Below are positions 4,111 through 59,813 of a stretch of 64,000 bases of DNA, in pieces (the stretch's first letter is position 1; the number at the start of each line of letters is the position of its first letter). The notes beneath the pieces were generated by a model. The model was not told the origin of the DNA and made no database searches. It saw only the letters and a program-made list of their open reading frames with translations. The DNA comes from an uncultured Chloroflexia bacterium (lineage in GTDB: Bacteria > Chloroflexota > Limnocylindria > Limnocylindrales > CSP1-4). Location of the stretch: positions 3,766,325 to 3,830,324 of the forward strand of contig OY969796.1 in NCBI GenBank assembly GCA_963703155.1. Reading direction: 5' to 3'. The position numbers and the translations under genes are program-made.

Positions 4111-4228
4111 GGGACGCCTCTGCTCCAACGTCGCGGAGCCCGAGCGCGCCGCGACACCACTGGGTGGCCCCAATTGTCGTCAGGCCGTCAATCGTCGTGA
4201 CGGGCTGCGCCGTGGCGCGCTCAAGCTG

Positions 4229-30133: not shown

Positions 30134-31081
30134 TCAGGAACCGACGATGTGCGTCCCGGCTCGGCCGTGGAGCGCCAGCTCGAGGTTCCCGGGGCTGGAG
30201 ATGACCGCCTCGCCGCCGCCCCGCTCCAGGAACCCGATGCAGGCCTCGATCTTCGGGGCCATGCTGCCGGGCGCAAAGTGCGTCCCGTCGGCGAGATAGG
30301 CGCGCGCCTCATCGAGGGTCAAGCGGTCAACGAAGCGCTGCGTCGGCTTGCCCCAGTCGAGCGCGACCCGCTCAATCGAGGTGCTGATGACGAACAGGTC
30401 GGCACTGATGACGGTCGCCAGCAAGGCTGACGCATAGTCCTTGTCGATGACGGCAGCGATCCCGTGGAGCAGGCCGTGCTCGTCGGCCACGACGGGGATG
30501 CCGCCTCCGCCGACGGTGATGACCACGAACCCGTCGTGGAGCAGCGCCCGGACGGCCCGCTCCTCCACGATCCGGATCGGCTTCGGCGATGGCACCACCC
30601 GTCGCCACCCGCGGCCGGCGTCCTCCCGCACCGACCAGCCGTCGACATCGCGGCGCCGGAGCGCCGTCGCCTCGTCCATGAACGAGCCGATCGGCTTGCT
30701 GGGGTTCGCGAACGCGGGATCGTGGGCGTCGACCTCCACCTGGGTCACGACCGTGACAGCCTGACGCCGCATCCCCATCTGGCGGAAGTCGTTCGCCAGG
30801 TTCTGCTGCAGCTCGTACCCGATCGCGCCCTGAGAGTCCGCGCCGCACACGTCGAGCGGGACTTCGTGGAGTTCGTGCGCCGAGAGCTCGGATCGGCGCA
30901 GGATGAACCCCACCTGCGGGCCGTTCCCGTGGCCGATCGCGACGTGCCACCCTTCCTTGATGATCGCGGCGATGTGGCCGCTCGTCTCGCCGAGCGCCGC
31001 GTACTGGTCCGGGACCGTCATGTGCTGCGGGTCCCGGATGAGCGAGTTGCCGCCGATCGCGACGACGAGGGTCTTGGTCAC
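30134..31081 (-). CDS. arcC: carbamate kinase
   Basis: 315 aa. LVVAIGGNSL, HGNGPQVG and the amino-acid kinase fold support the call. Confidence 0.85.
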   Translation of the reverse strand: MTKTLVVAIGGNSLIRDPQHMTVPDQYAALGETSGHIAAIIKEGWHVAIGHGNGPQVGFILRRSELSAHELHEVPLDVCGADSQGAIGYELQQNLANDFRQMGMRRQAVTVVTQVEVDAHDPAFANPSKPIGSFMDEATALRRRDVDGWSVREDAGRGWRRVVPSPKPIRIVEERAVRALLHDGFVVITVGGGGIPVVADEHGLLHGIAAVIDKDYASALLATVISADLFVISTSIERVALDWGKPTQRFVDRLTLDEARAYLADGTHFAPGSMAPKIEACIGFLERGGGEAVISSPGNLELALHGRAGTHIVGS

Positions 31082-31151: not shown

Positions 31152-32129
31152 TCACCGCATCGTCAGCGCCATGACGGCCTTCTGGGCGTGGAGCCGGTTC
31201 TCGGCCTGGTCGTAGACGACCGAATGCGGGCCGTCGATGACCCCGTCGGCCACCTCGACGTTCCGGTCCGCGGGGAGCGGATGCATGTAGATCGCATCCT
31301 CTCGGGCCAGCCCGATCCGGCGCTCGTCGGTGATCCAGTCCGTGTACCGCCGCGCGGTTGCGGCTCCCTCCTCCTCGGAGGTGGCCGTGAGCAGCGCGCC
31401 CCAGCTCTTCGCATACACGATGTCGGCGCCGCGCATGCCCGCGTCGAAGTCGTCCATCAGCTCGAAGCTGCCGCCGCTGCGGCGGGCGTTCTCGGCCGCC
31501 TGGTCCACGTACTCCTGTGGCAGCCGGAACTCCGGCGGGTGGACCAGCCGGACGTGCATCCCGTAGCGGGTGGTGAGGAGCGAGAGGTCCACGGGCACGC
31601 TGATCGGCTTCTGGTAGCTGGCGGCGTACGCCCAGCTGATGTCGATCGTCCGCCCGCGCGGATCGCCCTTCTGCTCGATGATCGTCAGCAGGTCGGCCAG
31701 CGACTGGTGGGGGTGGAACAGGTCGCACTGCATGTTGAGCACCGGGACGCGCGACGCCGCGGCCACCTCCCGGAGGTACGCGTTGCCGACGCCCCAGTCG
31801 CAGTGCCGGATCGCGATCCCGTCGTTGTAGCGGCCGAGGATCTCGCCGATCTCCTTGGGCGTGTCGCCGTGGGCGATCTGCGTGGTCCGGCTCTCGATGA
31901 ACTGGGCGTGGCCGCCCAGCTGCGCCATCCCGGCCTCGAAGGAGGCACGGGTCCGCGTCGACGAGAAGAAGAACAGCATCGCGAGGACGCGGTCCCGGAG
32001 CAGCGGGTGCGGGATCCCGAGGGCCCGCTCCCGCTTGAGCTGCATGGCCACGTCGAGGACGGTGTCGACCTCGTCCTTGGTCCACTCCTGGAGCGTGATC
32101 AGGTCGCGGCCCTTGAGCCCGGTCTGCAT
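31152..32129 (-). CDS. YgeW-type (knotted) carbamoyltransferase
   Basis: Block-by-block match to E. coli YgeW. TQIAHGDTPKEIGEIL...GVGNAYLREV, NMQCDLFHPHQSLADL, ISWAYAASYQKPISVP, SGGSFEL...ADIVYAKSW, AIYMHPLPAD and STRTR are all present. Confidence 0.8.
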   Translation of the reverse strand: MQTGLKGRDLITLQEWTKDEVDTVLDVAMQLKRERALGIPHPLLRDRVLAMLFFFSSTRTRASFEAGMAQLGGHAQFIESRTTQIAHGDTPKEIGEILGRYNDGIAIRHCDWGVGNAYLREVAAASRVPVLNMQCDLFHPHQSLADLLTIIEQKGDPRGRTIDISWAYAASYQKPISVPVDLSLLTTRYGMHVRLVHPPEFRLPQEYVDQAAENARRSGGSFELMDDFDAGMRGADIVYAKSWGALLTATSEEEGAATARRYTDWITDERRIGLAREDAIYMHPLPADRNVEVADGVIDGPHSVVYDQAENRLHAQKAVMALTMR

Positions 32130-32142
32130 CGTGGGCCCCCGG

Positions 32143-33096
32143 TCACTCGGCCGCGCCGAGGATGAGCGCGAGCATGCCCATCTTCAGTGCGACGCCGTTG
32201 AACGCCTCGGACCAGTACCGCTGGTGGCGCGTGGCGTCCACGTCTTCGGGCAGCTCGTCCATGCGCGGCAGCGAGTGGAGGATGATCGAGGAGCGCTTCG
32301 CCTTGTCGTGCAGCAGCTGCCGCGTGACGACGTACTCCGGCGGGGTAAGCCCCACCTTGTCGCCCCGCTCGACGCGCGACGCGGTGTAGTCGGCCTGGAC
32401 GACCGGCTCCATGTAGATGATGTCCGCCTCGCCGATGACGTCGCGGACGTCCCCGGCCTCCTGGTAGTCCACGTTGAGCGCGTCGATCTCCGCCTTGAAC
32501 TCGGGCAGCAGGCTCATGTCGGGCGGGCCGACCACGATCGCCTTGGCGTCGAACTGCGACAGGGCGTACAGGATCGAGTGCATCGTCCGCATCCGCATGT
32601 CGCCGACGAGCAGGTATGTCAGCCCGTCGAGGGTGCCCTTCTCGTGGAGGATCGTGTAGAGGTCGGTCAGGATCTGGGTGGGATGCTCGCCCCATCCGTC
32701 GCCGCAGTTGATGACGGGGACCGACGCCCACTTCGCGGCCTCCGCCGGCGCGCCCTGCTGGAAGTGGCGGATCGCGATGACGTCCGCGTAGTACTCCAGC
32801 ATGTGGAACGTGTCCTTGATCGACTCCTGGTAGAAGTCGCCGGCGCGGGTCATCTTCGAATCGGAGAACCCGAGCACCTGCCCTCCGAGGCGGTGCATCG
32901 CGGCCTCATGGGAGAGCCGCGTGCGCGTGCTGGGCTGGTAGAACGCGGTGAGCAGGGTCTTGTCCTTCAGCAGGTCCGTGTTCCGGCGGTCCCGGGCGAA
33001 CGGGCGCAGGTCGTCGGCGACCTGGAAGACGCGGAAGAACTCGTCGCGGCTGAAGTCCTTGAGCGACAGGATGTCCCGGCCGAGGAAGCTTCTCAT
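32143..33096 (-). CDS. aspartate/ornithine carbamoyltransferase family protein (ATCase-like)
   Basis: STRTRLS, HPTQ and HSLPR motifs. 317 aa. The ATG overlaps the upstream stop (ATGA). Confidence 0.75.
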   Translation of the reverse strand: MRSFLGRDILSLKDFSRDEFFRVFQVADDLRPFARDRRNTDLLKDKTLLTAFYQPSTRTRLSHEAAMHRLGGQVLGFSDSKMTRAGDFYQESIKDTFHMLEYYADVIAIRHFQQGAPAEAAKWASVPVINCGDGWGEHPTQILTDLYTILHEKGTLDGLTYLLVGDMRMRTMHSILYALSQFDAKAIVVGPPDMSLLPEFKAEIDALNVDYQEAGDVRDVIGEADIIYMEPVVQADYTASRVERGDKVGLTPPEYVVTRQLLHDKAKRSSIILHSLPRMDELPEDVDATRHQRYWSEAFNGVALKMGMLALILGAAE

Positions 33097-34552
33097 CGTG
33101 CGATCTGCTCCTGTGGACGCGAGGTGGCGGCCGCGACGATGGGCGGTGGCACCCGCCCGTCGTCCCTCCGGACGCCGGTGAACAGGACGGCCACGGTCTC
33201 GCCCTCCCGGACGAGGCCGCTCCGTGTCAGTGAGAGGAGGCCGGCGAGGCCGGCCGTACCGGTGTGGTCGACATCGATCCCAGTCGACGTGCGCCCGAGC
33301 TCGTTCGCCGCACGGACGGTGGCCTCGTCAACGGCGACCGCGCCGCCGCCGGTCCGCTCCATCGCCTCGACGACGGCTGCCCAGTCGTACGTCTCGTCGT
33401 CGAGGATGCCGTGCGCGACGCTCGATGGCTCGGTTTCCCAGGGCCGCATGTACGCGGAGCGGTGCGTCCGGGCATGCGCGAGGGCCGGTCCGGGGCCTGT
33501 GAGGGCGACACGCTCTCGGAACCGCTGCCACGCGCGAACGAGCGGCGCGCACCCCTCGGTCTGGACGGCGTAGAGCCTCGGCTCGCGCTCGATGGTCCCG
33601 AGCACGTGCGCCTCGGCGAAGGCTGCCGCGACTGCGGAGGCGAGTGCGCCGCCACCGACCTGGATCACGACCGCATCCAGACGCGCCCGAGCCTCCGTGC
33701 GGCTGGCGCGCGCCTGGCGGACCAACTGCGCGACCATCTCGTAGCCGATGGTCTGGCCGCCCTCGATGGCGAGGCCGTTCTCGTTGCCCTGGCAGGTGAA
33801 CGGGACGGCCCCATGGGCAATCGCTTCGCGCAGGCGGCGGTAGGTCGGGTCGCCCGTCTCGCCGGCCTCTCGCCGACAGGCGACGACGTCGGCACCGAGC
33901 TCACGCAGCCTCGCGACCACGACCGGGTCCGCCCAGGTGGGGACGTAGACGTCGAGGGGCCGGGCTGCGGCGCGCGCGACGACGGCGGCCGCCAGCGCCG
34001 CGTTCCCGCAGCTGGCGATCGCGAGGCGGCCCGTCACGATGCCGGGCGCGAGCTCGTCGGCGACCAACAGGTCGATCATGACCCCCATCAGGTGGCGCGC
34101 CTTGTGCGAGCCCGTGACGTTCGTCGTCTCGTCCTTGACGAGGAGGCGTCCTGCTGCCAACCCGGCCCGGGCGGCGAGCACCGGGGCCGGCTCGAATGGC
34201 GTCTCGCGGAACCCGTGCCCGTCGACCGCCGCGACGCTCGCGTCCAGGCGCCCGACGAGGGCGACGTAGCGCTCGTCCGACCACCCCTCGGCACGGGCGA
34301 TGTGGTAGGCGCGCGAGAGGGTGCGGTAGCGCGCGAACGTCCCGGCATCGAGCCCCGCGTCCGGTCCGGCGTCGGGGAACGCGAGGCGGGCCGGGTCGAT
34401 GGAGCGGCGGAGGACGTGGTCGATGTCATCCCCGTCCCGCGCGGCCGGGCAGCGGGCGATGAAGGCGATCTCATCGGGCACCACGTGCCCGCACCCAGCG
34501 CAGGCGAGCCGGATCGGAAGCGGCCGCCTGGCGGCTGACCCGCGCGGAGCCG

Positions 34553-34556
<4 letters not shown>
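33093..34556 (-). CDS. PLP-dependent enzyme (fold type II, threonine synthase-like) with an N-terminal Cys4 zinc ribbon
   Basis: TGSHKAR PLP-lysine motif and CAGCGH...C. The GTG start overlaps the upstream stop (GTGA). Confidence 0.6.
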
Positions 34557-36052
<1,496 letters not shown>

Positions 36053-36219
36053 CTGCTCCTCCAGGGCCTCCGCCTCGTCACGGACGCCTTCGGGTCTGAA
36101 CGGGCCGCCGTCCTCGGGACGAACAGCAGGGTCTCGCTCGCGACTACCTCCGTACGATTGGGGATGGCAGCATGCCGCCGATAGGGCCGGATGGCGCCTG
36201 CGGCGGAGAAGGACGGTCC

Positions 36220-38961
36220 GTGGAGTTCACCCTCAACGGCCGACCGGTCTCGATCGAGGCCGCGCCGGATGACAGCCTCCTCGATCTCCTGCGAGGCAGC
36301 CTGGGTCTCCGGTCCATGAAGGACGGGTGCGCGCCCGAAGGTTCCTGTGGGGCGTGCACCGTGATCGTGGACGGTCACGCCGTGGTCTCCTGCGCGCAGC
36401 CCGCGACCCGGGTCGCCGGCCGGACGGTCGAGACGCTCGAGGGTCTGTCCGAGGCGACGCGCACCTCGTGGGCCGACGCCTTCGCGCGCACCGGGGCCTC
36501 ACAGTGCGGGTTCTGCTCGCCGGGCATCGTGATGAAGGCCGAGGCGCTCCTGCGCCGCCAGCCCGACGCGACCGCCAGCGACATCGCGCATGCCCTCGCC
36601 GGGAACCTCTGCCGGTGCACCGGGTACGCGCGCATCGTCGAGGCGGTGCTCGCTGTGGCGAAGGCCCGGCGCGGGGAAGCGACCGACGCCCGGCGCCGGA
36701 GCAGCAGGGCGTCTCGCAGCCCGGCGTCGATGGCTCCTGGCCGATCGGGACGCCAGCGGAGCGGTACCACGCACGCGAACTGGCCCTGGGGGAACAGGCC
36801 TTCGTCGCTGACATGCGGGCGCCCGGGATGCTCCACGGTGCCCTCCGCTTCTCGGACCACCCCCGGGCGGTCGTCCGCCGCATCGACATCTCGCGGGCGC
36901 TCGCCGAGCCCGGCGTCGTCGACGTCATCACGGCTCGAGACGTGCCGGGCAAACGCCAACAGGGGCTGATCGTGGACGACTGGCCGCTGCTCGTGGCCGA
37001 GGGCGAGACGACGCGCTATGTCGGTGACGTGCTCGCCGCCGTCGCCGCGACGACGCGGGCCGCCGCTCGTCGGGCGGCCTCCCTGATCGAGGTGGACTAC
37101 GACGTCCTCGAGCCCCTCACCGACCCGTTCGCCGCGCTCGCTGACGGCGCCCCGGCCCTCCACCCGGGCGGCAATGTGGTGTCGCGGTCCGTCGTCCGCC
37201 GGGGCGACGCGGCCTCGGCGATCGGCGCAGCTGCACACGTCGTGACCGACTCGTTCCGGACCCAGGCGATCGAGCACGCGTTCCTCGAGCCGGAATCGTG
37301 CCTCGCGGTGCCGGGTCGGGCCGCCGACAGCGGATCGGCCGCGGCGGGGACGCCCGCGGACGCCGAGGCGGTGCGCGTCTTCTCGCAGGGGCAGGGCGCC
37401 TGGGAGGACCGCCGCCAGATCGCCTCGTTCCTCGGCCTCCCAGAGCGCGCGGTGCGCGTGACACAGGTCGCCACCGGCGGCGCGTTCGGCGGCAAGGAGG
37501 ACCTCAACGTCCAGGGCCAGGCCGCGCTGCTCGCGATCCGCACGGGACGACCGGTGCTGATCGCCCTCAGCCGGCGCGAGAGCCTGCGGTTCCACGTGAA
37601 GCGCCACCCGTTCTGGATGACGTACACCGTCGCCTGCGACGCGGACGGTCGGCTGACGGCGGTGCGCGCGCAGATGGTCGGCGACAACGGCGCGTACGCG
37701 AGCGTCGGCGGCAAGGTCCTCGAGCGTGCCGCCGGTCATGCCTGCGGGGCGTATCGCGTGCCCAACGTCGACGTGGAGGCGACCGCCGTCTATACGAACA
37801 ACCCGCCGTCGGGGGCGATGCGCGGCTTCGGCGCCAGCCAGGCGAACTTCGCGCTCGAGTCGCTGATCGACGCTCTTGGCCGAGCGGGTCGGGATCGACG
37901 GCTGGGAGATGCGCTGGCGGAACGCGCTCGACGTCGGCGACCGGTTCGGCACGGGTCAGTTGCTCGGGCCGGGCGTTGGCGTGAAGAAGACGCTCCTCGC
38001 CGTCCGCGACGCCTACCGGTCGGCCCGCTTCGCCGGCATCGCCTGCGCCGCGAAGAACACCGGGATCGGCAACGGGCTGCGCGAGTTCGGACGCGCCGTC
38101 ATCCGCGCGGAGGCAGACGGGACGCTGACGCTGTACCACTCCTGGACCGAGATGGGGCAGGGCTGCCACACCGTGTTCCGCCAGATCGCCGCCGCCGAGC
38201 TCGACGTCGACCCCGGCCGGATCCGCGTGGTCGTGGACACCGACCACGAGCTCGACACCGGCGAGACGACGGCCTCGCGGGCGACGATGCTCGGCGGGCG
38301 GGCGGTGGTCGAGGCGGCGCGACGCCTCCTCGCTGCCCTGGGAGGACGCCCACCCGATCCGGCAGCCATCGCCGCCCTGGCCGGCCAGGAGTTCGCAGAC
38401 GAGGTGGTCATCGACTGGACGACGCCGCTCGGGGCCGAGGGCGAGCCCGTCACCCACTTCGCCTACGGCTGGGCGACCCAGGTCGTCATCCTCGATGACG
38501 ATGGCGTCATCGAGCGGGTCATCGCGGCGCACGACGTCGGGCGCGTCCTGAACCCCACGCTGCTCGCGGGGCAGGTCGAGGGCGGGGTGCACATGGGTCT
38601 CGGCCAGGCGCTGACCGAGGAGTTCGTCGTCGAGGGTGGCGTTCCGCGGACGGACACGCTCAAGTCACTGGGGATCATCCCGGCCACGGCCATGCCGCCG
38701 GTCGAGTGCATCTTCGTCGAGGAGCCCCAGCCCGAGGGTCCGTACGGCGCCAAGGGCATGGGCGAGGCCGTCCTCGTGCCGACCGCGGCCGCTGTCGCAG
38801 GCGCCCTCCACAGCTTCGACGGCATCCGCCGGACGAGCCTCCCGATGCACGATTCGGCCGCCGCGAGAGCGGTGCTGCCGCGGCTGGCCGCGAAGGCTCA
38901 CCCCCATGCCGACGCCCGGCCCGTCACGGTTGCCCGCGTCGTCGAAGACGCCCCGGCATGA
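36220..38961 (+). pseudogene. XdhD/MOP-like fused [2Fe-2S] plus molybdopterin-binding oxidoreductase, with two apparent frameshifts (about 36650-36730, and a +1 at 37875-37879)
   Basis: The N-terminal 2Fe-2S domain (CGACTV..., CGFCSPG, CRCTGY) starts at GTG 36220 after GGAGAAGGA. The Mo domain (GTPAERYH...PGMLHG...) is in another frame with no start codon near its conserved N-terminus. The C-terminal part (AERVGIDGWEMRWRNAL...) is in a third frame after cttggcc. Confidence 0.65.
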
Positions 38962-39993
38962 CGCCGCTCGGCCCCGCCGTCACGCCGGGTCTTGTCGACG
39001 CCCACCACCACCTCTACTCGGCCCTCGCCCGCGGGATGCCCGCGCCCCGGACCACGCCGACAACGTTCCGCGGCATCCTCGAGCAGGTCTGGTGGCGCCT
39101 CGACCGCGCGCTCGACCTCGAGATGATCGCCGCGTCGGCCCGGCTGGGAGCCCTCGAGGCCCTCGAATCCGGGACCACCGCGATTGTGGACCATCACGAG
39201 TCGCCGAACGCGATTGAGGGGTCCCTCTCGATCATCGCCGACGCCTGTGCCGAGGTAGGCGTCCGGGTCGTCTGCGCCTACGGCGTCTCGGACCGGAACG
39301 GTGAGGACGGCGCGAAACGTGGATTGGCGGAGAATCGCCGGTTCCTGGCAGCGGGCGGCCGTGGCCTCGTCGGGATCCATGCCGCGTTCACCTGCTCGGA
39401 TGCGACGCTCGAGGCGGCGGCGGATCTTGCCCGCGAACACGGGGTGGGGTGCCACGTCCACGTGTGCGAGGGGCGGGAGGACTGGGACGCGCCGGCACGG
39501 CTCACGTCGCTGGCGACCGATCGGTGGCTGCTTGCCCACGCGGTCCATCTGCCGGCCCCCCACCAGCTCGCTGGCACGATCGTGCACAACCCGTTCTCCA
39601 ACCTGAACAACGCCGTCGGGTACGCACGCCCCGCGCGCTTCAGCGGGCCGGTGGCGCTGGGGACCGATGGCATCGGCGCGCAGATGCTCGAGACGTTCCG
39701 CCTCGCGTACGCGCTGCATCGGTCGGTCGACGTGACCGCGGAGCCGACCACCGCCTGGCGCTGGCTCGAGGCGGGGTGGGACCTGGTGCCCGCAGTGCGC
39801 GAGGACCGGGTGACGTGGTCGTACGAGCCGATCGAGCCATGGCACGTGGCCTTCACGCCCGGGATCCGCCCGCTGCGCGTGGAGATCGGCGGGGAGCTGG
39901 CCCTCGACGACGGCGTGCCGACCCGGGTCGACGCGCGCGGAGATCAGGGCGCACGCCCGCGAGCAGGCCGCGCGACTCCATGCGCGGCTCTGA
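38958..39993 (+). pseudogene. SsnA/chlorohydrolase-like amidohydrolase with a +1 frameshift in gcgcgcgg (39933-39940)
   Basis: Metal-binding HHH (VDAHHHLY), HxH and D motifs. The native C-terminus ...VDAREIRAHAREQAARLHARL* is only read after a 1-nt shift. Confidence 0.65.
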
Positions 39994-41911
39994 GGTGGTG
40001 GGGCCCGCCGCCGATCGTGGCCCAGTCGCCGCATTCTCGCCGCTCCCCCTCAGCGTCCTGCTCCGACGCATCGCCCACGAATGGCGGACGAGACACGCCA
40101 TCTTCGACCTGGCGCCAGGCCACTTCTTCAACGCGTCGGCCGGCCCGGACCTCTCGGTCCGCTTCCTCGGCCGCCCGGCCGCGACCCCGCTCGGCCCTGC
40201 TGCCGGCCCGCACACGCAGCTCGCGCAGAACATCGTGCTCGGCTGGCTCGGCGGCGCGCGGATCGTCGAGCTCAAGACCGTCCAGGCGCTCGACCGGCTC
40301 GAGATCCCGCGGCCGTGCATCGACATGGAGACCGTGGGCTACAACGTCGAGTGGAGCCAGGAGCTCCGCCTCGAGCAGTCGCTCGAGGAGTACGTCAAGG
40401 CCGCGATGATCGTCGAGATCCTCGGCGGCTGGGACGAGCTGGGCCCGTTCCTGGGCCCCGACCCGGGCCCGCGCATCTTCGACCTGTCAGTGGGCTACGA
40501 CCTCGCCGGCATCGCATCGCCCCGGGTCGCGGCGTTCATCGACGGGATGGTCGACGCGCGACCGACCATCGACCGCCTCCGGGCCGAGATCCCCGAGCCG
40601 TTCGCCGCCTGGCGCGATCACCCCTTCGCGAGCGCCGTCTCGGGCTCCGCCACGGTCTCGACGTTCCACGGCTGTCCGCCCGGCGAGATCGCGGCCATCG
40701 CCCGCCACCTCATGACACGCCACGGCCTCGATGTCGTCGTCAAGCTCAACCCGACGCTCCTCGGGCGCGAGCGCGTGTCGGCCATCCTGCACGACCGACT
40801 CGGGTACGAGGAGATCCAGCTGCGGCCGGAGGCCTTCGACGCCGACCTGTCGCTCGAGGGGGCGGTGGACCTCATCGGGGAGCTCGACGCCTTCGCGCGC
40901 GGGCACGGGCGGCGCTTCGGCATCAAGCTGACCAACACGCTGGTGGTCGCGAACCATCGTGGCGTGCTGCCCGCCGACCCGATGTACCTCTCCGGGCCGC
41001 CGCTGCACGTCCTCGCGGTCACGCTCCTCGACGAGCTTCACCAGGCCCTGCCCGGGACGCTGGCCATCGGGGAGGGGAGCGGCTCCGTGGAGGTGAGCTT
41101 CTCGGCCGGGGTCACGAAGCACAACATCGCCGATGTCGCGGGGCTTGGCGTCGCGCCGATCTCGGTCTGCTCGGACCTCCTCCGACCCGGGGGCTACGGA
41201 CGGCTCAAGCCGATGCTGGTGGCGCTCGGCGAGCGGATGGCGGCAGCGGGGTGCCCCGACATCGCCGCCTGGCGGGGGCACCAGGCTGAAGAGGCGGTCG
41301 GCGCTGGGGCGACCGATGCCGTCGCGGGATACGCCGGGCACCTGAACACCGTGGAGGGCGCGCTGCCCTACACCAGATCGACGACGGGGCACCCGCTCCG
41401 CCACGTCGACCGGGTGCTGGCGCGGTGGGACTGCGTGGCCTGCAACGAGTGCGTGACCGTCTGCCCGAATGACGCCTTCTTCCGCGTGGAAGCCGGACCG
41501 GACGTCGCCCTGTCGTCAGCGCACCAGTACGTCTACCTCGCCGAGCTCTGCAACCGCTGCGGCAACTGCGCGGTCTTCTGCCCCGAGGAGGGCGACCCCG
41601 CCGCCGTCAAGCCGGCCCTGTTCCTCGACCCTGGCTGTTTCGCCGCCAACGACCGTCTGGGGTTCCTCCTGGCGCGGGAGGGCGACAGGCTGCTGGTGGT
41701 CCCCGCGCCCGGCATCGACCAGGCCGACGCGGAACGGCTCGGGCGGCTCCTCGACGCCCCGAGGGGCCTCCCCCTCGACCCGCGGGATCTCGCCGTCACC
41801 CGCGGCGCCGGGCCGCCGGCAGGGCACGAGCGACGGATTGTCCCCGTCGAGCCGCGCGCATCCTCCGAGACGCACCGGTGCGATCGATCGCCGAGCGGGA
41901 GTGGCCGATGA
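39980..41911 (+). CDS. Fe-S flavoprotein: DHOD/DPD-like TIM-barrel oxidoreductase with a C-terminal 2x[4Fe-4S] ferredoxin domain (PreA/YgfK-like)
   Basis: Two CxxCxxCxxxCP motifs (CVACNECVTVCPNDA, CNRCGNCAVFCPEEG). The barrel assignment is by pattern only. Confidence 0.55.
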   Translation: MRGSEVVGPAADRGPVAAFSPLPLSVLLRRIAHEWRTRHAIFDLAPGHFFNASAGPDLSVRFLGRPAATPLGPAAGPHTQLAQNIVLGWLGGARIVELKTVQALDRLEIPRPCIDMETVGYNVEWSQELRLEQSLEEYVKAAMIVEILGGWDELGPFLGPDPGPRIFDLSVGYDLAGIASPRVAAFIDGMVDARPTIDRLRAEIPEPFAAWRDHPFASAVSGSATVSTFHGCPPGEIAAIARHLMTRHGLDVVVKLNPTLLGRERVSAILHDRLGYEEIQLRPEAFDADLSLEGAVDLIGELDAFARGHGRRFGIKLTNTLVVANHRGVLPADPMYLSGPPLHVLAVTLLDELHQALPGTLAIGEGSGSVEVSFSAGVTKHNIADVAGLGVAPISVCSDLLRPGGYGRLKPMLVALGERMAAAGCPDIAAWRGHQAEEAVGAGATDAVAGYAGHLNTVEGALPYTRSTTGHPLRHVDRVLARWDCVACNECVTVCPNDAFFRVEAGPDVALSSAHQYVYLAELCNRCGNCAVFCPEEGDPAAVKPALFLDPGCFAANDRLGFLLAREGDRLLVVPAPGIDQADAERLGRLLDAPRGLPLDPRDLAVTRGAGPPAGHERRIVPVEPRASSETHRCDRSPSGSGR

Positions 41912-42248: not shown

Positions 42249-43640
42249 TCAGCCAGGCGACTCGGCGAGGACCACCCGTCGCAGGATCCTGCCGCTGACG
42301 GCCCGCCGGTACTCGGCGGTGGAGCGCACATCGTCGATCGGCCGGACGTCGACCTGCGCGGCGAGGGCGGCCCGCTCAGCGACCTCGCGAGAGGGGATCG
42401 CGCCCTCGAGGACGTCCTCGGCGCGCTCAGCCCGAATCGGGACCTCGGCGACCGACCCGAAGGCGACGCGCACGTCGGACCACACCGCGCGACCGTCCGG
42501 GCGGCGCCACGACACCGCCAGCACGACCTTCGAGACCGCCTGCGCCCGCCGCGTCCCGACCTTGCGGAAACGGACCTGGCGGTCGGCGACGAGCGGGATG
42601 CGGATCGCCGTCAGCAGCTCGTCGTCGAGGCGGGCGGTGCGACGGTAGCCGGTGAAGAAGTCGGCGGCATTCACCGCGCGTTCCCCCGCGTGACCGCGGA
42701 GCACGAGCCGCGCATCGGTTGCGAGGAGGAGCGGCAGCGTGTCCCCAGCGGGCGATGCGGTCATGACGTTGCCGCCCACCGTCCCGCGGTTCTGGATCTG
42801 CCGGGCGCCGACGCACGCAGCGACCTCGGCGAACACGGGCAGCACCCCGGCGATCTGCGTGGACCGGCGCAGGTCGGTGTACGTCGTCAAGGCGCCGATG
42901 ACGAGCTCGGCGCCCTCGCGGCGCACGCCTCGCAGCCCCTCGATCGCGGTGAGGTCGACGAATCGCGCGTCGGGCGGGATCGACCCCGCCGCCAGGCCGG
43001 CCATCAGGTCGGTGCCGCCGGCGAGTGGACGCCAGCCGTCGGCGACGAGCTCGAGGGCCTCATCGAGCGAGCTGGCGCGCATGACGGTGGGCCCGCCGCC
43101 CAGGCTCGAGACCGGGCGGGCCGCCACGCGGGATCCGGGACTGCTTCGGAACGCACGTGGGGTCGATGCAGCCGCCGCGATCGCCTCGATGATCTTCGTG
43201 TAGCCCGTGCACCGGCAGAGGTTCCCGGCAATCGCCTCGCGGATGGACGCGTCCGTGGGCGCGGCATCCGATGCGAGGAGGGCATGAGCCCCGATGAGCA
43301 TGCCGGGTGCGCACATCCCGCACTGCACCGCGCCCGCATCGAGGAAGGCCGCCTGCACGGCGTCGAGCGGTCCGCCCTCCGCGGCGAGTCCCTCGACCGT
43401 CACCACGTCGCGGCCGTCCACCTGGCAGACCGGCAGCAGGCAGCTGTTGACGACCTCGCCATCGACGAGGACGGAGCACGCCCCGCACTCCCCCTCCCCG
43501 CAGCCCTCCTTCGTCCCGGTGAGGCCGAGGTCAAGGCGGAGGACATCGAGCAGGCGCCGCCCACCCGGGGCCTGGACCTCGACGGCCTCGCCGTTGATCG
43601 TGAAGGTGACCGTCGACGACGACGGGCGGACGAGCGTCAT
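42249..43640 (-). CDS. xdhA: xanthine dehydrogenase small subunit, fused [2Fe-2S] and FAD-binding (Rhodobacter XdhA-like)
   Basis: Two 2Fe-2S clusters (CGEGECGACSV, CGMCAPG, CRCTGY), then a CO-dehydrogenase-flavoprotein-like FAD domain. 463 aa. Confidence 0.8.
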   Translation of the reverse strand: MTLVRPSSSTVTFTINGEAVEVQAPGGRRLLDVLRLDLGLTGTKEGCGEGECGACSVLVDGEVVNSCLLPVCQVDGRDVVTVEGLAAEGGPLDAVQAAFLDAGAVQCGMCAPGMLIGAHALLASDAAPTDASIREAIAGNLCRCTGYTKIIEAIAAAASTPRAFRSSPGSRVAARPVSSLGGGPTVMRASSLDEALELVADGWRPLAGGTDLMAGLAAGSIPPDARFVDLTAIEGLRGVRREGAELVIGALTTYTDLRRSTQIAGVLPVFAEVAACVGARQIQNRGTVGGNVMTASPAGDTLPLLLATDARLVLRGHAGERAVNAADFFTGYRRTARLDDELLTAIRIPLVADRQVRFRKVGTRRAQAVSKVVLAVSWRRPDGRAVWSDVRVAFGSVAEVPIRAERAEDVLEGAIPSREVAERAALAAQVDVRPIDDVRSTAEYRRAVSGRILRRVVLAESPG

Positions 43641-45907
43641 CACGCCACCCCCGGTCCGACGACGCCATCGGGACCCGCCGCGAGCGCGGCGAGCACGCGC
43701 TCCGGGGTCGCCGGCAGCTCCGTGATCCACACGCCCACCGCGTCCTGGATCGCGGCGATCACGGCTGGCGCGCCCACGTCCATCGGCAGCTCGCCGAGGC
43801 CCTTCGCCCCGTGCGGGACACCCGAGAACGGTCGCTCGACGAAGAGCGCGGTGATCCGCGGCGCATCGACGGCGGTCGGGATGAGGTAAGTCGTCAGGCG
43901 GTCGTTCCGGTAGCGGCCCTCCTCGACCTTGAGCTCCTCGAGCGTCGCGTAGCCGACCGCCTGGAGCGTTCCCCCCTCGACCTGGCCCGTGGCGAGCCGG
44001 CGGTTCACCACGCGGCCGACCTCGTCCACCTGGACCACCGACCGCACGACGACTTCGCCGGTGTCGGTGTCCACGTCAACCTCGGCCACGGCCGCAGCCC
44101 AGCTGTAGGCCGGGTAGGCATCGCCATGGTGCGCCGCCTCGTCCCACTCAACCCCCGGGAAGCCGGCGAACTGCTCGTCGATCCGAACGGGCCCGTGCGC
44201 TGCGGCCCACGGGCGGTACGCGTCGGCGAACGGCTGGCCCGTCTGCGCCTCGACCTCGTCACGCAGCCGGCCGGCGGCACCGACGAGGAGACCGCCCACC
44301 ACCATCGTGGAGCGCGAGGCGACCGTGGGGCCGCTGTTCGGCACAACGGACGTGTTGACGCTCGCGACCGTGACCGCATCAGCCGGGATCCCCAGGCGCT
44401 CGGCGACCAGCTGGGCCAGGACGGTGCGCGATCCCTGGCCGATCTCAGCGGTGGACGCGAGGATCCGAACCTGCGCGTCGGCTGTCAGCTCGATCGCGGC
44501 GATGCTCGCGAGGCGGGTCTCGCCGCTCCCGGTGAAGCCGGCGCCGTGCCATCCGGTGGCGAGCCCGACCCCGGACGCGATGGGGCTGTCGAGGTCGCCT
44601 GCCGCGCGGGCCAGGCGTGCGTCGGCCGTGCACTTGCGCTTGTGCTCGAACTCAGACGCCTCGACCGCCCGGCTGAGCACGTCGAGCGCCCCGACGCTCT
44701 CGCGGAGCCGCTGGCCGGTCGCGGTCGTGTCGCCCTCCATGTACGCCCACCGCCAGCGCAGGGTGTCGGGCGAGACGCCGAGCCGCTCGGCGATGCGATT
44801 GACGTGCGTCTCCACCGCGAACTCGACCTGCGGGGCGCCGAAGCCGCGGAACGCCCCGTTCGGCGGCGTGTTCGTCGCCATGGCCCGAGCCCGGATCCGG
44901 ACGTTCGGGCAGGCGTACGGCCCGGCGGCGTGGATCGCCCCGCGGGAGAGGACCACCGGCGAGATCGTTGCGTACGCGCCCGCATCCAGGACGATGTCGA
45001 TCTCCTGGGCCAGCAGCCGCCCGTCAGCCGACACCGCCGTGCGGTGGGTGACGATCGAGGGGTGCCGCTTCGTCGTGGCGATCAGGTCCTCGTGGCGGTC
45101 GTAGGCCATGCGCACGGGGCGGCCAGCCGCGCGGGCGAGCAGCGCCGCGTGGATGGCGATCATCGAGGGGTACTCCTCCTTGCCCCCGAACCCGCCGCCG
45201 GTCTCGGCCTGGATGACAACCGTCCGTTCGTCATCGAGCCCCATCGCCCGCTTGACCGCGGCGTGGACGTAGTAGGGGCACTGGAGGGACCCAATGATGG
45301 TGACCCCGCCGTCGTCACGGGGTACGGCGATGATCGCCTGGTTCTCGAGGTAGAGCTGCTCCTGGTGGCCGGTCCGGTAGGTGCCCTCGAGGACGATGGC
45401 GTCGGCGGGGAGCGCCGCGAACGCCGCCTCCACGTCCCCCTTCACGATCTCGTACCGCGCGAACGCCCGCGTCGATGCCAGCGCATCGATGACGGCCTCG
45501 AGCGGCTCGGTGCGCAGGACGATGTGGTCGCGCGCGGCCCGCGCGGTCTGCGGGTCGGCGGCAGCAACGAGCGCGACAGGCTCCGCCACGTGGCGGATCT
45601 CGCCGTCGGCGAGCGCGGGCTGATCGTCGGAAATGAGGCTGACGACGTTCTGGCCGGGGATGTCCGCCGCGGTCACGAGCACGACGGACGACCAGTCGAA
45701 CGCGGGGTCACGCTCAACGGCCAGGAGGCGGGCGCGCGCATGGGTCGAGCGCACGGTCGCGCCGTACCAGGCGCCGGGCACGACGAGGTCGTCGGTGAAG
45801 AGGGCTTTCCCCGTTACCTTCTGCGGGCCGTCGGACCGCTGGACGTCACGCTGGCCATTCGGCGACTCAAGCGGTGGGCGGGCGACACGCTCGAGCAAGT
45901 CAGCCAT
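43640..45907 (-). CDS. xdhB: xanthine dehydrogenase molybdopterin-binding large subunit
   Basis: 755 aa. KVTGKALFTDD N-terminus and GGGFGGKE motif. Stop/start overlap with xdhA. Confidence 0.85.
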   Translation of the reverse strand: MADLLERVARPPLESPNGQRDVQRSDGPQKVTGKALFTDDLVVPGAWYGATVRSTHARARLLAVERDPAFDWSSVVLVTAADIPGQNVVSLISDDQPALADGEIRHVAEPVALVAAADPQTARAARDHIVLRTEPLEAVIDALASTRAFARYEIVKGDVEAAFAALPADAIVLEGTYRTGHQEQLYLENQAIIAVPRDDGGVTIIGSLQCPYYVHAAVKRAMGLDDERTVVIQAETGGGFGGKEEYPSMIAIHAALLARAAGRPVRMAYDRHEDLIATTKRHPSIVTHRTAVSADGRLLAQEIDIVLDAGAYATISPVVLSRGAIHAAGPYACPNVRIRARAMATNTPPNGAFRGFGAPQVEFAVETHVNRIAERLGVSPDTLRWRWAYMEGDTTATGQRLRESVGALDVLSRAVEASEFEHKRKCTADARLARAAGDLDSPIASGVGLATGWHGAGFTGSGETRLASIAAIELTADAQVRILASTAEIGQGSRTVLAQLVAERLGIPADAVTVASVNTSVVPNSGPTVASRSTMVVGGLLVGAAGRLRDEVEAQTGQPFADAYRPWAAAHGPVRIDEQFAGFPGVEWDEAAHHGDAYPAYSWAAAVAEVDVDTDTGEVVVRSVVQVDEVGRVVNRRLATGQVEGGTLQAVGYATLEELKVEEGRYRNDRLTTYLIPTAVDAPRITALFVERPFSGVPHGAKGLGELPMDVGAPAVIAAIQDAVGVWITELPATPERVLAALAAGPDGVVGPGVA

Positions 45908-47986: not shown

Positions 47987-48153
47987 GGATCGCTCGCACG
48001 CGATCGCGCCCGACCTCAAGGGCGAGCACAGAGGCCTCGTAGTCCGGCTGGGCGTGCTGACGCGGGCGGGCCGAACGGTCCTCCACGGCGGCGGCTTGGA
48101 TCCGTACTGTCGCAAGCAGGACTGCGTGTCCGCATCATCTGGAGGAGCCCGCG

Positions 48154-48948
48154 ACGTCCATCACCGGCGAGCCGCTCGCCATCCCATCGATCCCCAACCT
48201 GCGCGATGTCGGCGGGTGCCCTACCCGCTCCGACCGGCGCGTCCGCTCCGGTCTCCTCTACCGGTCGTCTGGTCTCGCCGACATCGACGATTCAGACATC
48301 GCCGCGCTCGCTGGGCTGGGCATCCGGACGGTGTACGACCTGCGCATGGCCCAAGAGCAGGCATCGGCGCCCGATCGGCTCCCGCCAAGGACGCGGCACC
48401 TGCCCGTGGACGTCCTGGCCGGCTGGATGGAAGGTGGCCCGAGGCGGCTGTTCGTGTGGATGGAGGACGCGGCGGCCGCCCGCGCTGGCCTGGGCGACGG
48501 GGGTGCGGAGGCCCTCTGGACTGAGCAGTACCGCGCCTTCGTTCGACTTCCGAGCGCCCAGGCCGGGTATGGCGCGTTGTTCCGGGACCTTGCGATCGGG
48601 GGGCATCGGCCGGCGCTCGTGCACTGCGCCACCGGCAAGGACCGCACAGGCTGGGCCGCGGCCGCGCTGCAGCTCCTGCTGCACGTGCCTGAGGCCGCCG
48701 TGATGGCCCATTTCCTCGAGAGCCGACAGCACCTCGGGCCCCTGGTGGCGTCGATGCTCAACGCCATCAGCGCGCGGGGCGGCGACCCCGAGTTGTTCGC
48801 TCCCATCATGGACGTCCGCCCTGACTACCTCGAGGCCGCGCTCGATGAGGTACGGCACGGGTACGGGACGATCGAGCGCTACTTCAGCCATGGCCTGCAT
48901 GTCGATGGGGCCACGCAGGAGGCCCTGCGCATCGCCTTCACGGAGTGA
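48154..48948 (+). CDS. tyrosine-protein phosphatase family (PF13350-like) protein with an atypical start: ACG at 48154, 6 nt after GGAGGAG
   Basis: HCATGKDRTG is a CX5R P-loop. The conserved N-terminal IPNLRDVGG...YRSS lies in frame upstream of the first canonical start (GTG 48331), and no ATG/GTG/TTG is found back to the in-frame stop at 48058. Confidence 0.6.
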   Translation, partial: TSITGEPLAIPSIPNLRDVGGCPTRSDRRVRSGLLYRSSGLADIDDSDIAALAGLGIRTVYDLRMAQEQASAPDRLPPRTRHLPVDVLAGWMEGGPRRLFVWMEDAAAARAGLGDGGAEALWTEQYRAFVRLPSAQAGYGALFRDLAIGGHRPALVHCATGKDRTGWAAAALQLLLHVPEAAVMAHFLESRQHLGPLVASMLNAISARGGDPELFAPIMDVRPDYLEAALDEVRHGYGTIERYFSHGLHVDGATQEALRIAFTE

Positions 48949-56187: not shown

Positions 56188-57075
56188 TCAGATGACGGCG
56201 ACGGGATCGACCATCGATCCAGTGGCGCCGCGGATCTTCACTGGGAGGGCCACGAACAGGAACTCGTACACCCGCTGGCGGGCGAGCTCCTCCAGATCGA
56301 GGCTCTCCATGAGGTAGATGCCGTTGTCGATCAACAGCAGCGTGTGCACGGGCTGAGGGTTGCCGGTCGGCCCGGGATCGGGAGCCGGCTGGACCTCGTA
56401 GGTCTCGGTGTCGGTTCCCGTGGCGACCACTCCCCGATCGAGGAGCCAGCGGGCCGCCGAGATGTCCGGCCCGGGCGTCTTGTGCGCCGCCATCCGCTCG
56501 GCGTCGGGCCACAGGGACATGTACCCGGTCCGGATCACGACCACGTCCCAGGGGCGCACCTCGACGGCCTGGGCTGCGCAGATGGCATCCATCTCCGCGG
56601 CATCGATCGGCGAGCCGTGCGGCAGGCACTCGACCCCGCGGTGGCCGGCCGCGTCGAGCAGCACGCCGCGCGTGAAGAACGGGGGCAGGGCGGAGGCATC
56701 GAGATGCGTCGGGCCGAAATCGCTCAAGTGGTCGTCGGCCCGCCCGCCGCCATGCCAGCGCATGTCCTCGCCGATGGTCATGTGCGCCAGCGCGTCGATG
56801 TGGGCGCCGGAGTGCGAGGTGGCCATGACGTACTCGGCCATGTAGCCGAGGCCAACGTCGTTGACCGGACCCCAGGGCTTGGCGCCGACAACCCGGATGC
56901 CCCGCGGCGTGCGGTAGTTCAGCACCTGGAACGGCGGGTGCCCCGGGAACAGCGGCATCCCAGGGAACCGCGCCGCCGCGAGCGAGATCGTCCTGCCTTC
57001 GCGGACCAGGCCCGCGGCGCGGACGATCTGCTCCGGGGGCAGCGATGCAATCGGACCGATGTCGAAAGCGGTCAT
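56188..57075 (-). CDS. cyclase family protein (kynurenine formamidase-like)
   Basis: HSGAHIDALAH motif. The ATG overlaps the upstream stop (ATGA). Confidence 0.75.
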   Translation of the reverse strand: MTAFDIGPIASLPPEQIVRAAGLVREGRTISLAAARFPGMPLFPGHPPFQVLNYRTPRGIRVVGAKPWGPVNDVGLGYMAEYVMATSHSGAHIDALAHMTIGEDMRWHGGGRADDHLSDFGPTHLDASALPPFFTRGVLLDAAGHRGVECLPHGSPIDAAEMDAICAAQAVEVRPWDVVVIRTGYMSLWPDAERMAAHKTPGPDISAARWLLDRGVVATGTDTETYEVQPAPDPGPTGNPQPVHTLLLIDNGIYLMESLDLEELARQRVYEFLFVALPVKIRGATGSMVDPVAVI

Positions 57076-59336
57076 GACCCGTGCTCCTCGCGCTCGTTGG
57101 CTGGCCGGTCGCGCAGCGCCCGCCAGACGCGCTCTGGCGTCAGCGGCAGGTCTCGGACGACCACGCCGGTCGCCTCCCGGACGGCGGCCGCGACGGCCGG
57201 CGCCACGCACAGGAGCGCCCCCTCGCTCATGCCCTTGGCACCGTAGGGGCCCGGGCCGTCGCCGTTCTCCACCATGTCGCTGATCAACTCGAGCGGCAGG
57301 TCCATGCTGGTGGGGATCCGGTAGTCGATGGCGCCGAGGTTCCGGATTCGCCCGGCGTCGTCAAAGATGTACTGCTCCATCAGGGTGTGGCCGAGGCCCT
57401 GGATGGCGGCCCCCTCGTCCTGCGTCCGGACCTGGAGCGGGTTGATCGCCTTCCCCACATCGGACACGGTCACGTGGCGCACCACCGTCACGTCGCCGGT
57501 GCCCTCGTCGACCGCCGCCTCGATCGCGGTGCAGTTGAACTCGAAGAACGCGGGTGCGCCGCCGAGCGGGTGGTCCGGATCCGCGTCCTTGCGCATCTCG
57601 CCGTTGCCAACCAGCTCGCCGCCCAGCCGGCCCAGCCCGGGTCCGAGCAGGTCCCGGATCGAGAGGTCGCGGTCGGGCAGCGAGACGACGCCCCGGTCCA
57701 CGCGGATCAAGGCCTCGTCGAGGCCGTGGACGCGAGCCGCCATCGCCCGCAGCTTGCCTTGGATCTCGCGGCACGCCGCCAACACGGAGTTGCCCATCAG
57801 GACGGTGGACCGGCTCGCCGAGGTCTGCTGGTCGTACGGCACCACGGCCGTGTCGCCCATGATCACCGTGACCCAGTCCAGCGGGGCCCCGAGCTCCTGA
57901 CCGGCGATCTGGGCCAGCACGGTCCGCGCTCCCTGGCCCATGTCGGACGTGCCGGCGTAGACGACAACGCTGCCGTCGGCGAGCAGCCGGACGGTCGAGT
58001 AGGACAGCCCGGTCGTCGGCCCCGACTTGATCCCAACGGCGATGCCGCGCCCGTGTCCGGGCGGCCTGGGCGTGTCCCAGCCGATGAGCGCGGCAGCCCG
58101 CCGAACCACCTCTGCCCAGTCCCCGTCGGCGGGCGTGTCCCAAGGGATGAACGCCTCGCCCGGCCGGGCCAGGTTCCGCAGCCGGATCTCCAGGCGGTCC
58201 AGGCCCAGGATCAACGCGGCCTCGTCCAGGTTGGACTCCACCGCCCAGTTCACCTGCGGGTTGCCGAAGCCGCGCATCGCCGTCGACGGCACGGTATGGG
58301 ACAGGATCGGGCGGGCGACGATCCGGGCAGCCGGCATCCGGTACGGGCCAGCGCCCAGGTAGCTCCCCTTGCCCACCACCCGGTCGGCGATGTCGACGTA
58401 GGCGCCGATGAGATAGTCCGCCTCGATGTCCTGGAAGCAGATCGTCCCGTCGGCTCGGAGGCCGGTCCGGACGTGCACGTCGGACGCGGCGCGGCGGACC
58501 GCCTGGAACGTCTCCTCGAGCGTCAGCACCAGGCGGACCGGCCGCCCCGCCCGCAGCGCCATGAGCGCAACCAGCGGCTCGTACTTCGCGTGCTGCTTGC
58601 CACCGAAACCGCCGCCCGGGTCCGGGGCGACGACGCGGACCTTCGCGAGGGGCAGGCCGGTGATCTCGGCCAGAATCCGCTGCAGCCAGTTGGGGTGCTG
58701 GACCGTGCTCCACATCACCAGGCCGTCCCCGTCGGGGGCGGCGATGTAAGCGTGCGGCTCGATGGCGAACTGGGTGATGATCGGGAACGTGTAGCGGTGG
58801 TCCACGACCAGGTCGGCGGGCGTCGCGTCGACATCCCCCCAGCCCACCCGGTGCTCGCGCAGGATGTTGGATCCCGAGAGGGGATCCTTCGGCCGCCGCG
58901 ACGGGTCCTGGACCAGCGGTGCGGCGGGGGCGAGGGCACCGGCGATCGTCGTGACCGCGGGCAGCTCCTCGAAGGTCACGCGGACGAGCGCCGCAGCCTC
59001 CTGCGCCGCGTCCTTCGTCTCGGCTGCCACGATGGCCACCGGCTCGCCGTGGTACTTGACCTCGTCGACGGCCAGCACCGGGCGATCCCGGTACTGCGGT
59101 CCGAAGCGGGGGACGGGCTGCGGGAGGTCCGCGGCTGTCAGCACCAGCCGGACGCCAGGAACGCGCAGCGCCTCGCTCGTGTCGATCGCGACGATCCGGG
59201 CGTGGGCGCAGTCGATGGTCACCAGCTTCGCGTGCAGCTCGCCCGCGAGGTGGACGTCCGCGACGTACTCCTGGGCGCCCGTGACGCGATCGATCCCGCC
59301 TACCCGGTTGGGAGATGCCCCCACGCGCGCGGTCAT
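57072..59336 (-). CDS. xanthine dehydrogenase/CoxL-family molybdopterin-binding large subunit
   Basis: About 754 aa. N-terminus VGGIDRVTGAQEYVADV and GGGFGGKQ. Stop/start overlaps with the neighbouring genes. Confidence 0.8.
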   Translation of the reverse strand: MTARVGASPNRVGGIDRVTGAQEYVADVHLAGELHAKLVTIDCAHARIVAIDTSEALRVPGVRLVLTAADLPQPVPRFGPQYRDRPVLAVDEVKYHGEPVAIVAAETKDAAQEAAALVRVTFEELPAVTTIAGALAPAAPLVQDPSRRPKDPLSGSNILREHRVGWGDVDATPADLVVDHRYTFPIITQFAIEPHAYIAAPDGDGLVMWSTVQHPNWLQRILAEITGLPLAKVRVVAPDPGGGFGGKQHAKYEPLVALMALRAGRPVRLVLTLEETFQAVRRAASDVHVRTGLRADGTICFQDIEADYLIGAYVDIADRVVGKGSYLGAGPYRMPAARIVARPILSHTVPSTAMRGFGNPQVNWAVESNLDEAALILGLDRLEIRLRNLARPGEAFIPWDTPADGDWAEVVRRAAALIGWDTPRPPGHGRGIAVGIKSGPTTGLSYSTVRLLADGSVVVYAGTSDMGQGARTVLAQIAGQELGAPLDWVTVIMGDTAVVPYDQQTSASRSTVLMGNSVLAACREIQGKLRAMAARVHGLDEALIRVDRGVVSLPDRDLSIRDLLGPGLGRLGGELVGNGEMRKDADPDHPLGGAPAFFEFNCTAIEAAVDEGTGDVTVVRHVTVSDVGKAINPLQVRTQDEGAAIQGLGHTLMEQYIFDDAGRIRNLGAIDYRIPTSMDLPLELISDMVENGDGPGPYGAKGMSEGALLCVAPAVAAAVREATGVVVRDLPLTPERVWRALRDRPANEREEHGS

Positions 59337-59809: not shown

Positions 59810-59813
59810 CACG

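Follow-up and report, generated by a model that had tools for sequence, protein, structure and literature searches.

A gene for a fused iron-sulphur and molybdenum (Mo) cofactor hydroxylase of the xanthine dehydrogenase type, here called xdh, lies near the middle of a 64,000-nucleotide stretch of DNA from an uncultured Chloroflexia bacterium (assembly GCA_963703155.1, contig OY969796.1, positions 3,766,325 to 3,830,324). This stretch, analysed as a whole and referred to below as the window, has a G+C content of 71%. As deposited, the xdh coding sequence is distributed over three pieces in two codon phases, and a further break in the reading frame falls within the amidohydrolase gene immediately downstream. 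The open reading frames (ORFs), pieces and breaks are as follows.

36172 to 36969, plus strand, ORF in codon phase 1; the Fer2 and Fer2_2 domains are confined to its first ~159 residues, and the rest is out of frame up to the stop at 36967-36969
36327 to 38498, plus strand, ORF in phase 0; hammerhead and MoCoBD_1 domains (Pfam) in mid-ORF
36220 to 36690, plus strand, piece 1 of xdh, phase 1; two [2Fe-2S] domains (Pfam Fer2 and Fer2_2), extent from the frame-plot
36691 to 37872, plus strand, piece 2 of xdh, phase 0; a/b hammerhead and first Mo-cofactor domain (Pfam Ald_Xan_dh_C and MoCoBD_1)
37874 to 38961, plus strand, piece 3 of xdh, phase 1; second Mo-cofactor domain (Pfam MoCoBD_2), with an ORF from TTG 37876
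38958 to 39938, plus strand, main body of an SsnA-like amidohydrolase, phase 0 (Pfam Amidohydro_1)
39940 to 39993, plus strand, last 17 codons of the amidohydrolase and its stop TGA 39991-39993, shifted to phase 1 by break 3
36679 to 36716, break 1, net -1, from phase 1 to phase 0, in a length-variable inter-domain linker
37869 to 37877, break 2, +1, from phase 0 to phase 1, best placed at the C at 37873
39933 to 39940, break 3, +1, from phase 0 to phase 1, an extra base in GACGCGCGC[G]GAG in the amidohydrolase gene

Piece 1 contains the motifs CAPEGSCGACTV, CGFCSPG and CRCTGY (the last encoded by 36610-36627). Judged from the sequence, including the N-termini of homologues, it probably starts at GTG 36220, just 5' of which lies GGAGAAGGA; ATG 36172, further upstream, is an alternative start. 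An earlier reading by a model that saw the letters and their ORFs only (the sequence-only reading) had noted that the iron-sulphur frame runs without a stop to 36969, as it does. The same reading found no start codon within 35 codons upstream of the conserved GTPAERYH of the Mo-domain frame. The start-less stretch in fact extends over 43 codons, and the last upstream start does lie inside the CRCTGY codons; it is GTG 36615, however, rather than the GTG 36612 originally named. Piece 2 carries IGTPAERYH (at 36744), GGAFGGKE and AMRGFGASQ, and piece 3 carries GAKGMGE, which we take to bear the catalytic Glu. The stop codon of piece 3 (TGA 38959-38961) overlaps the ATG of the next gene, and its ORF (37876 to 38961) is already present in a public collection as an identical, separate protein of 361 residues, P0195. 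None of the three pieces contains an in-frame stop. When the frame is corrected the pieces join into a protein of 913 residues, in which the junction-spanning peptide sequence reads ...ESLIDVLAERVG...

The frame-corrected protein matches the NCBIfam model TIGR03311 with 917.5 bits (cutoff 830.45), residues 2-880 aligning to positions 2-845 of the 848 profile positions in one stretch. Its five domains (Fer2, Fer2_2, hammerhead, MoCoBD_1 and MoCoBD_2) stand in the right order, with no flavin adenine dinucleotide (FAD) domain, and are encoded in three frames as the sequence is written. On these matches the gene is classed as an ordinary member of TIGR03311, an already named and well-populated family described as 'selenium-dependent xanthine dehydrogenase' (Haft & Self 2008, PMC2276186). 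The selenium criteria of that family are dependence on a labile selenium cofactor and genomic co-occurrence with selD, yqeB and yqeC. For the window enzyme, selenium dependence is putative and follows from the family annotation; families of the selD, yqeB and yqeC type found no match among the window proteins scanned, which represent 64 kb of the genome only.

All of the best 120 database proteins are single fused chains of 852-950 residues with the same five domains, and several of the best homologues, from Candidatus Limnocylindrales metagenome-assembled genomes (MAGs), are themselves named 'selenium-dependent xanthine dehydrogenase'. The best (P0001) is 88-90% identical to the frame-corrected protein over the full length. 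The sequence-only reading had proposed a single fused polypeptide of about 915 residues, and the uniformly fused homologues, together with a corrected product of 913 residues that aligns with them end to end, bear it out. Its comparison with the Desulfovibrio aldehyde oxidoreductase MOP and Escherichia coli XdhD stands as far as the shared architecture goes; the scores against the models of both families stay below cutoff, and the actual family is TIGR03311. MOP (PDB 1dgj, 1sij/1vlb) is a single chain of ~907 residues with the same fused iron-sulphur and Mo architecture. The frame-corrected protein can be aligned with it over the whole length (residues 5-881 versus 8-901), and MOP is the closest solved structure, but the match to the MOP model NF045668 reaches only 436.7 bits against a cutoff of 1100. 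The subfamily therefore differs from that of MOP, and presumably so does the substrate. The XdhD model TIGR03313 gives 233.6 bits against a cutoff of 1101.9.

At the level of DNA, tblastn examined frame by frame aligns nearly the entire protein in a single unbroken frame in 83 of 83 fetched genome loci, and all 80 metagenome loci match over nearly the full length. The hydroxylase match extends over ~4 kb instead of ~2.6 kb in five loci (L021, L023, L031, L079 and L112), which may be caused by an adjacent paralogue or an insertion; the first four still hold one full-length in-frame high-scoring segment pair.

The breaks were mapped by DNA alignment to two closely related intact loci, L001 (from GCA_021779175.1) and L002 (from a Logan assembly), whose nucleotide identity to the window is 86-89%. 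Over 6.6 kb the window differs in length from these loci at six places, three of which break the frame; the other three are in frame relative to L001 and all fall within length-variable segments. Each of the three xdh pieces is 80-90% identical to the corresponding part of the intact proteins, and the ORFs of relatives, aligned to the window by tblastn, switch frame at the breaks (about 90 at break 1 and about 180 at break 2, counts that include shadow ORFs). The frame pieces are therefore not a product of chance. Frame changes in these alignments are found only at the three breaks, since the remaining well-supported junctions are shadow ORFs lying over ordinary gene boundaries. That the three breaks are real in the deposited sequence is thus confirmed.

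The limits of break 1 are set by the comparison with L002: phase 1 is homologous through RGE (36670-36678) and phase 0 from CAGCCC at 36717. This narrows the 1-nt shift that had been placed between about 36650 and 36730. The linker itself is 20 nt longer than in L001 and 19 nt shorter than in L002. A frame-plot, computed as a seven-state Viterbi path trained on the codon-position composition of the window sequence, changes frame at 36690, and a contraction of CCCC to CCC at 36689-36691 can be offered as a guess at the underlying event.

Break 2 is sharper. Phase 1 is closed by TGA 37861-37863, just before AERVGIDGWE, and the break must therefore lie between 37864 and 37878; both L001 and L002 show a single-base gap at 37873. 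Deletion of that C converts GAC G[C]T CTT GGC C into GAC GTC TTG GCC and restores DVLAE, as in the three closest homologues, where the protein alignment column reads LESLxDVLAERVGIDGWE. The extra base that the sequence-only reading had located at cttggcc (37875-37879) is accordingly present, with 37873 as its best placement. That reading recognized two breaks in xdh and missed the third, in the next gene, where a single-base gap at ~39939 is again present in both relatives. As written, the amidohydrolase misses its stop and reads on to 40409. Deleting one base at break 3 restores a protein of 344 residues ending in ...AARLHARL*, and 344 residues is its length in all close relatives.

A CGACGC hexamer lies at or just before each break (36684-36689, 37868-37873 and 39929-39934). 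The window contains 215 copies of this hexamer, which does not exceed shuffled sequences, and the copy at break 2 is created by the inserted base itself. Its proximity to the breaks is probably a coincidence; conceivably, it is at most a weak hint of a context-specific basecalling error.

Could the enzyme be produced from the sequence as it stands? That the three indels are real and the product is nonetheless made, via three separate chains or via unconventional recoding at three sites distributed over two genes, appears very unlikely. Split and fused iron-sulphur/Mo arrangements both occur in the enzyme family. The selenium-containing nicotinate dehydrogenase of Eubacterium barkeri (PDB 3hrd) has the same domains in naturally split FeS, L and M subunits, showing that the fold works as separate chains, and its chains A, B and D each match a different part of the corrected protein. 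By analogy with this four-subunit enzyme and its L/M-split Mo subunit, the pieces of xdh could be three separately translated chains (FeS, Mo-N and Mo-C), and TTG 37876 does lie exactly at the start of piece 3. The nicotinate dehydrogenase subunits, however, are encoded by their own genes with proper starts and stops, and the natural NdhL/NdhM boundary is near residue ~609, some 57 residues downstream of break 2, which falls at ~552 and cuts the invariant stretch LESLxDxLAERVGIDGW. Such chains would also carry out-of-frame tails of 93 residues on piece 1 and 208 residues on piece 2, and neither candidate restart (GTG 36615 or TTG 37876) has a Shine-Dalgarno-like sequence or a nearby upstream stop for coupling. 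A split at the break points occurs at none of the 83 genome loci and in none of the other homologues retrieved as full-length matches. Functional fission is accordingly regarded as a highly improbable account of the locus.

Programmed recoding would combine a -1 frameshift in the linker with +1 frameshifts at CUU-G (37873-37876) and at ~39939. Skipping the G after GCU CUU would yield ...DALAERVG..., and the site is superficially like the CUU-U +1 site of prfB. An X XXY YYZ heptamer is absent from 36630-36745, the interval around break 1; there is no long homopolymer, and the A site at 37876 holds neither a stop nor a rare codon. Three independent events in two genes would be needed. The sequence-only reading had named a programmed frameshift in homologues as one observation that would overturn it, and a conserved frame change is found in none of the 120 best proteins and none of the 83 genome loci. 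With neither a slippery site nor conservation, both programmed frameshifting and transcriptional slippage are unsupported, and recoding is scarcely credible; taken together with fission it still amounts to a very small chance. Recoding of selenocysteine or other stop codons was rejected, as the interruptions are changes of frame and not in-frame TGA codons.

A different question is whether the genes have decayed. Of the 327 columns with at least 97% conservation among the 120 intact homologues, the frame-corrected protein deviates at 2, which equals the median of those homologues themselves (range 0-8). The numbers of nonsynonymous and synonymous changes on the window lineage are 39 and 85 for xdh (ratio 0.46) and 22 and 53 for the amidohydrolase, not above the ratios on the intact L001 (0.64) and L002 (0.53) lineages. 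With no raised ratio, no excess of changes at conserved sites and no in-frame stops, an established, old pseudogene was rejected. If indels arise at 0.1-0.2 per substitution, a rate assumed from published mutation-accumulation work, two genuine indels in xdh should come with ~2.6-5.2 additional deviations at the 327 conserved codons; none is seen (p~0.07-0.005). The breaks are therefore either artefacts or, on an evolutionary scale, instantaneous.

A mosaic or recombinant origin of the middle segment was likewise rejected: identity to L001 and L002 shifts gradually and does not jump at the breaks, and L001 is the closer of the two in most 300-nt windows. An intact allele from the same species was not recovered. 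The exact DNA pattern across break 2 had 0 matches in metagenome contigs, a protein-based scan reached at best 80% in metagenome contigs and 80% in genome contigs, and database proteins reached at best 88-90%.

On balance, the three breaks (net -1 near 36690, +1 at 37873 and +1 at ~39939) are probably uncorrected consensus indel errors of a long-read metagenome assembly, an explanation in which we place somewhat better than even confidence. The organism most likely makes the enzyme as a single polypeptide, and xdh heads an operon with the SsnA-like, putatively ring-opening amidohydrolase and an iron-sulphur reductase resembling the N-terminal part of YgfK. The sequencing technology, and hence the origin of the errors, is something we infer from the provenance of the contig and of its relatives. 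A protein search with the 282 residues surrounding break 2 found P0195, whose record, like those of five other proteins of the window, gives a contig of 4,153,430 bp present in both NCBI and the European Nucleotide Archive (ENA). A contig of 4.15 Mb from an uncultured Limnocylindria-like lineage implies a long-read assembly. Among the relatives, one protein (P0006) and one locus (L005) belong to Microflora Danica MAGs with the same NCBI and ENA provenance pattern, and the long-read MAGs of that project are Nanopore-only Flye assemblies with one round of Medaka polishing (PMC12313526). The related long ENA contigs are probably Nanopore-only as well.

Frame damage of the same kind is present in such contigs. 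On ENA contigs longer than 50 kb, about 20 further homologues are truncated, and each of the four sequences read has an out-of-frame tail at its end. In L165 (ERZ25039527 contig_14172) the xdh homologue lies in 5 frame pieces with 1/318 conserved-site deviations, and the contig shows 16 frame-switch events in 21 kb; L164 (ERZ25039449 contig_3169) has four, confined to 3.7 kb of the same operon. The purine-catabolic operon is broken in both contigs (L164 7000-11400 and L165 200-10800), with genes for pyridoxal phosphate (PLP) enzymes split and two carbamoyltransferases fused while conserved residues are intact. Similar CG-rich contexts recur at the indels of these two contigs, whose alignments are too noisy to count. 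The damage in L164 and L165 looks like uncorrected long-read indel error and resembles residual indels of Nanopore assemblies (PMC12313526): single-base indels split conserved genes without accompanying substitutions and in local clusters. The window is far cleaner, with 3 breaks in 64 kb compared with 4-16 in 21 kb, and its platform is inferred.

It is important to point out that several observations speak against assembly error. The breaks adjoin no long homopolymers, the longest run being 4, and such errors would be rare if the contig had been built from PacBio HiFi reads or polished with hybrid data. More importantly, the breaks are clustered: three fall within 3.3 kb, which has p~0.008 under uniform error (range statistic, three points on 64 kb), and only two adjacent, functionally linked genes are hit, whereas ~55 other window genes look intact. 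The frame-plot recovers all three breaks, and it recovered 57 of 60 simulated single-base indels in long coding segments; outside 36-40 kb, where ~38.6 kb of coding sequence was well covered, it shows no further genuine break. All other scanned window genes have end-to-end Pfam matches. An explanation by error therefore has to assume a local cause, for instance low coverage or the co-assembly of strain variants.

Relaxed selection on a single operon accounts for the clustering better than uniformly scattered error does, which is a reason to consider that the three indels are real mutations. The hydroxylase and SsnA-like genes would then be very young pseudogenes of an operon at the onset of its loss, and a second xanthine dehydrogenase encoded next door (42249-45907, minus strand) may make that loss tolerable; this enzyme and a third, CoxLSM-like enzyme are both present in the window. 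Such a recent inactivation is a serious possibility, to which we nevertheless assign clearly less weight than to assembly error. The absence of the expected deviations at conserved codons and of any other sign of decay argues against it, the remaining pathway genes are untouched, and breaks without decay are also found in the clearly error-rich related contigs. Since several breaks, no substitutional decay and local clustering occur together in L164 and L165, the argument from clustering against error is weakened.

Three further signals elsewhere in the window were tried and rejected as frameshifts. A frame-switch call at 4127 is noise in the intergenic space that separates an aldolase-like gene from a lipoprotein gene, an apparent in-frame stop at 9319 separates two adjacent genes sharing a phase, and a call at 48133 reflects a start-codon problem in the gene listed next.

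48061 to 48948, plus strand, tyrosine-phosphatase gene (Y_phosphatase3); domain complete, start region 48141-48160

No ATG, GTG or TTG precedes the domain of this gene; its first canonical start (48331) lies 51 codons into the Pfam match. A Shine-Dalgarno-like GGAGGAG (48141-48147) is followed by ACG 48154, which, read as a start, gives MSITGEPLAIPSIPNLRDVGG. The ACG is either a rare start codon or the result of a base error or mutation that turned ATG into ACG.

The genes surrounding xdh, together with the two other xanthine dehydrogenase-family systems of the window, are listed below.

39980 to 41911, plus strand, intact iron-sulphur protein of 643 residues resembling the YgfK N-terminus (TIGR03315); Fer4 domains, 4Fe-4S dicluster
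30134 to 31081, minus strand, carbamate kinase; divergent, intact (Pfam/NCBIfam)
31152 to 32129, minus strand, first carbamoyltransferase; divergent, intact (Pfam/NCBIfam)
32143 to 33096, minus strand, second carbamoyltransferase; divergent, intact (Pfam/NCBIfam)
33093 to 34556, minus strand, first PLP-dependent enzyme; divergent, intact (Pfam/NCBIfam)
34553 to 36052, minus strand, second PLP-dependent enzyme; divergent, intact (Pfam/NCBIfam)
42249 to 45907, minus strand, second xanthine dehydrogenase (XdhA/XdhB-like), apparently intact; fused Fer2-Fer2_2-FAD small subunit (42249-43730) and Mo subunit (43640-45907)
57072 to 60677, minus strand, third xanthine dehydrogenase-family system, apparently intact; CoxL/S/M-like trio (57072-59399, 59333-59896 and 59814-60677)

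The amidohydrolase scores below the cutoffs of both SsnA models (NF005540, 242.6 bits, cutoff 444; TIGR03314, 229.4 bits, cutoff 455.5), and at 344 residues compared with ~442 for SsnA it is called SsnA-like only. The true end of its gene is overlapped by the start codon of the iron-sulphur protein gene (ATG 39980). That protein reaches 409.8 bits against TIGR03315 (Se_ygfK), below the cutoff of 835, and covers profile positions 4-397 of 1012; its dicluster is UacX/PydA-like. An identical protein is recorded in the public collection from the 4.15-Mb contig. The five divergent companion genes have the same order on the contig of a relative (L003), where four of the five lengths are equal and the second PLP enzyme has 499 residues compared with 487 in the longest ORF here. 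No homologues of YgfM, HyuA or YgeY were detected among the window proteins scanned, and scans of the window for Rfam families, tRNAs, promoters and terminators returned nothing relevant.

In E. coli, XdhD is likewise a fused iron-sulphur/Mo protein, encoded beside an amidohydrolase of the SsnA type and a reductase of the YgfK type, and genes for carbamate kinase, carbamoyltransferase and PLP enzymes lie nearby; XdhD reduces urate to 2,8-dioxopurine, in a cluster with SsnA and YgfK (bioRxiv 10.1101/2025.05.19.654654; 10.1101/2025.04.24.650524). By analogy, the gene set of the window resembles a variant of the cluster for reductive (2,8-dioxopurine) degradation of purines and urate. According to Li et al. 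(bioRxiv 10.1101/2025.05.19.654654), SsnA clusters of Chloroflexota lack YgfK and UacX and have an F420-type enzyme in their place; clusters of the Limnocylindria type appear to be an exception to this statement.

For annotation, it would be best to merge the three ORF fragments of xdh and the over-long ORF of the amidohydrolase, or to mark them as frameshifted; they should not be taken for new subunit architectures. If the pattern in L164 and L165 is error, many of the fragment 'proteins' of TIGR03311-type xdh in public collections are artefacts too. The biological importance of the locus is small, the family being already named and the neighbourhood being like that of the recently described urate/2,8-dioxopurine pathway. 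Were the breaks real, they would only record that one lineage of soil Chloroflexota has very recently lost one purine-catabolic operon.

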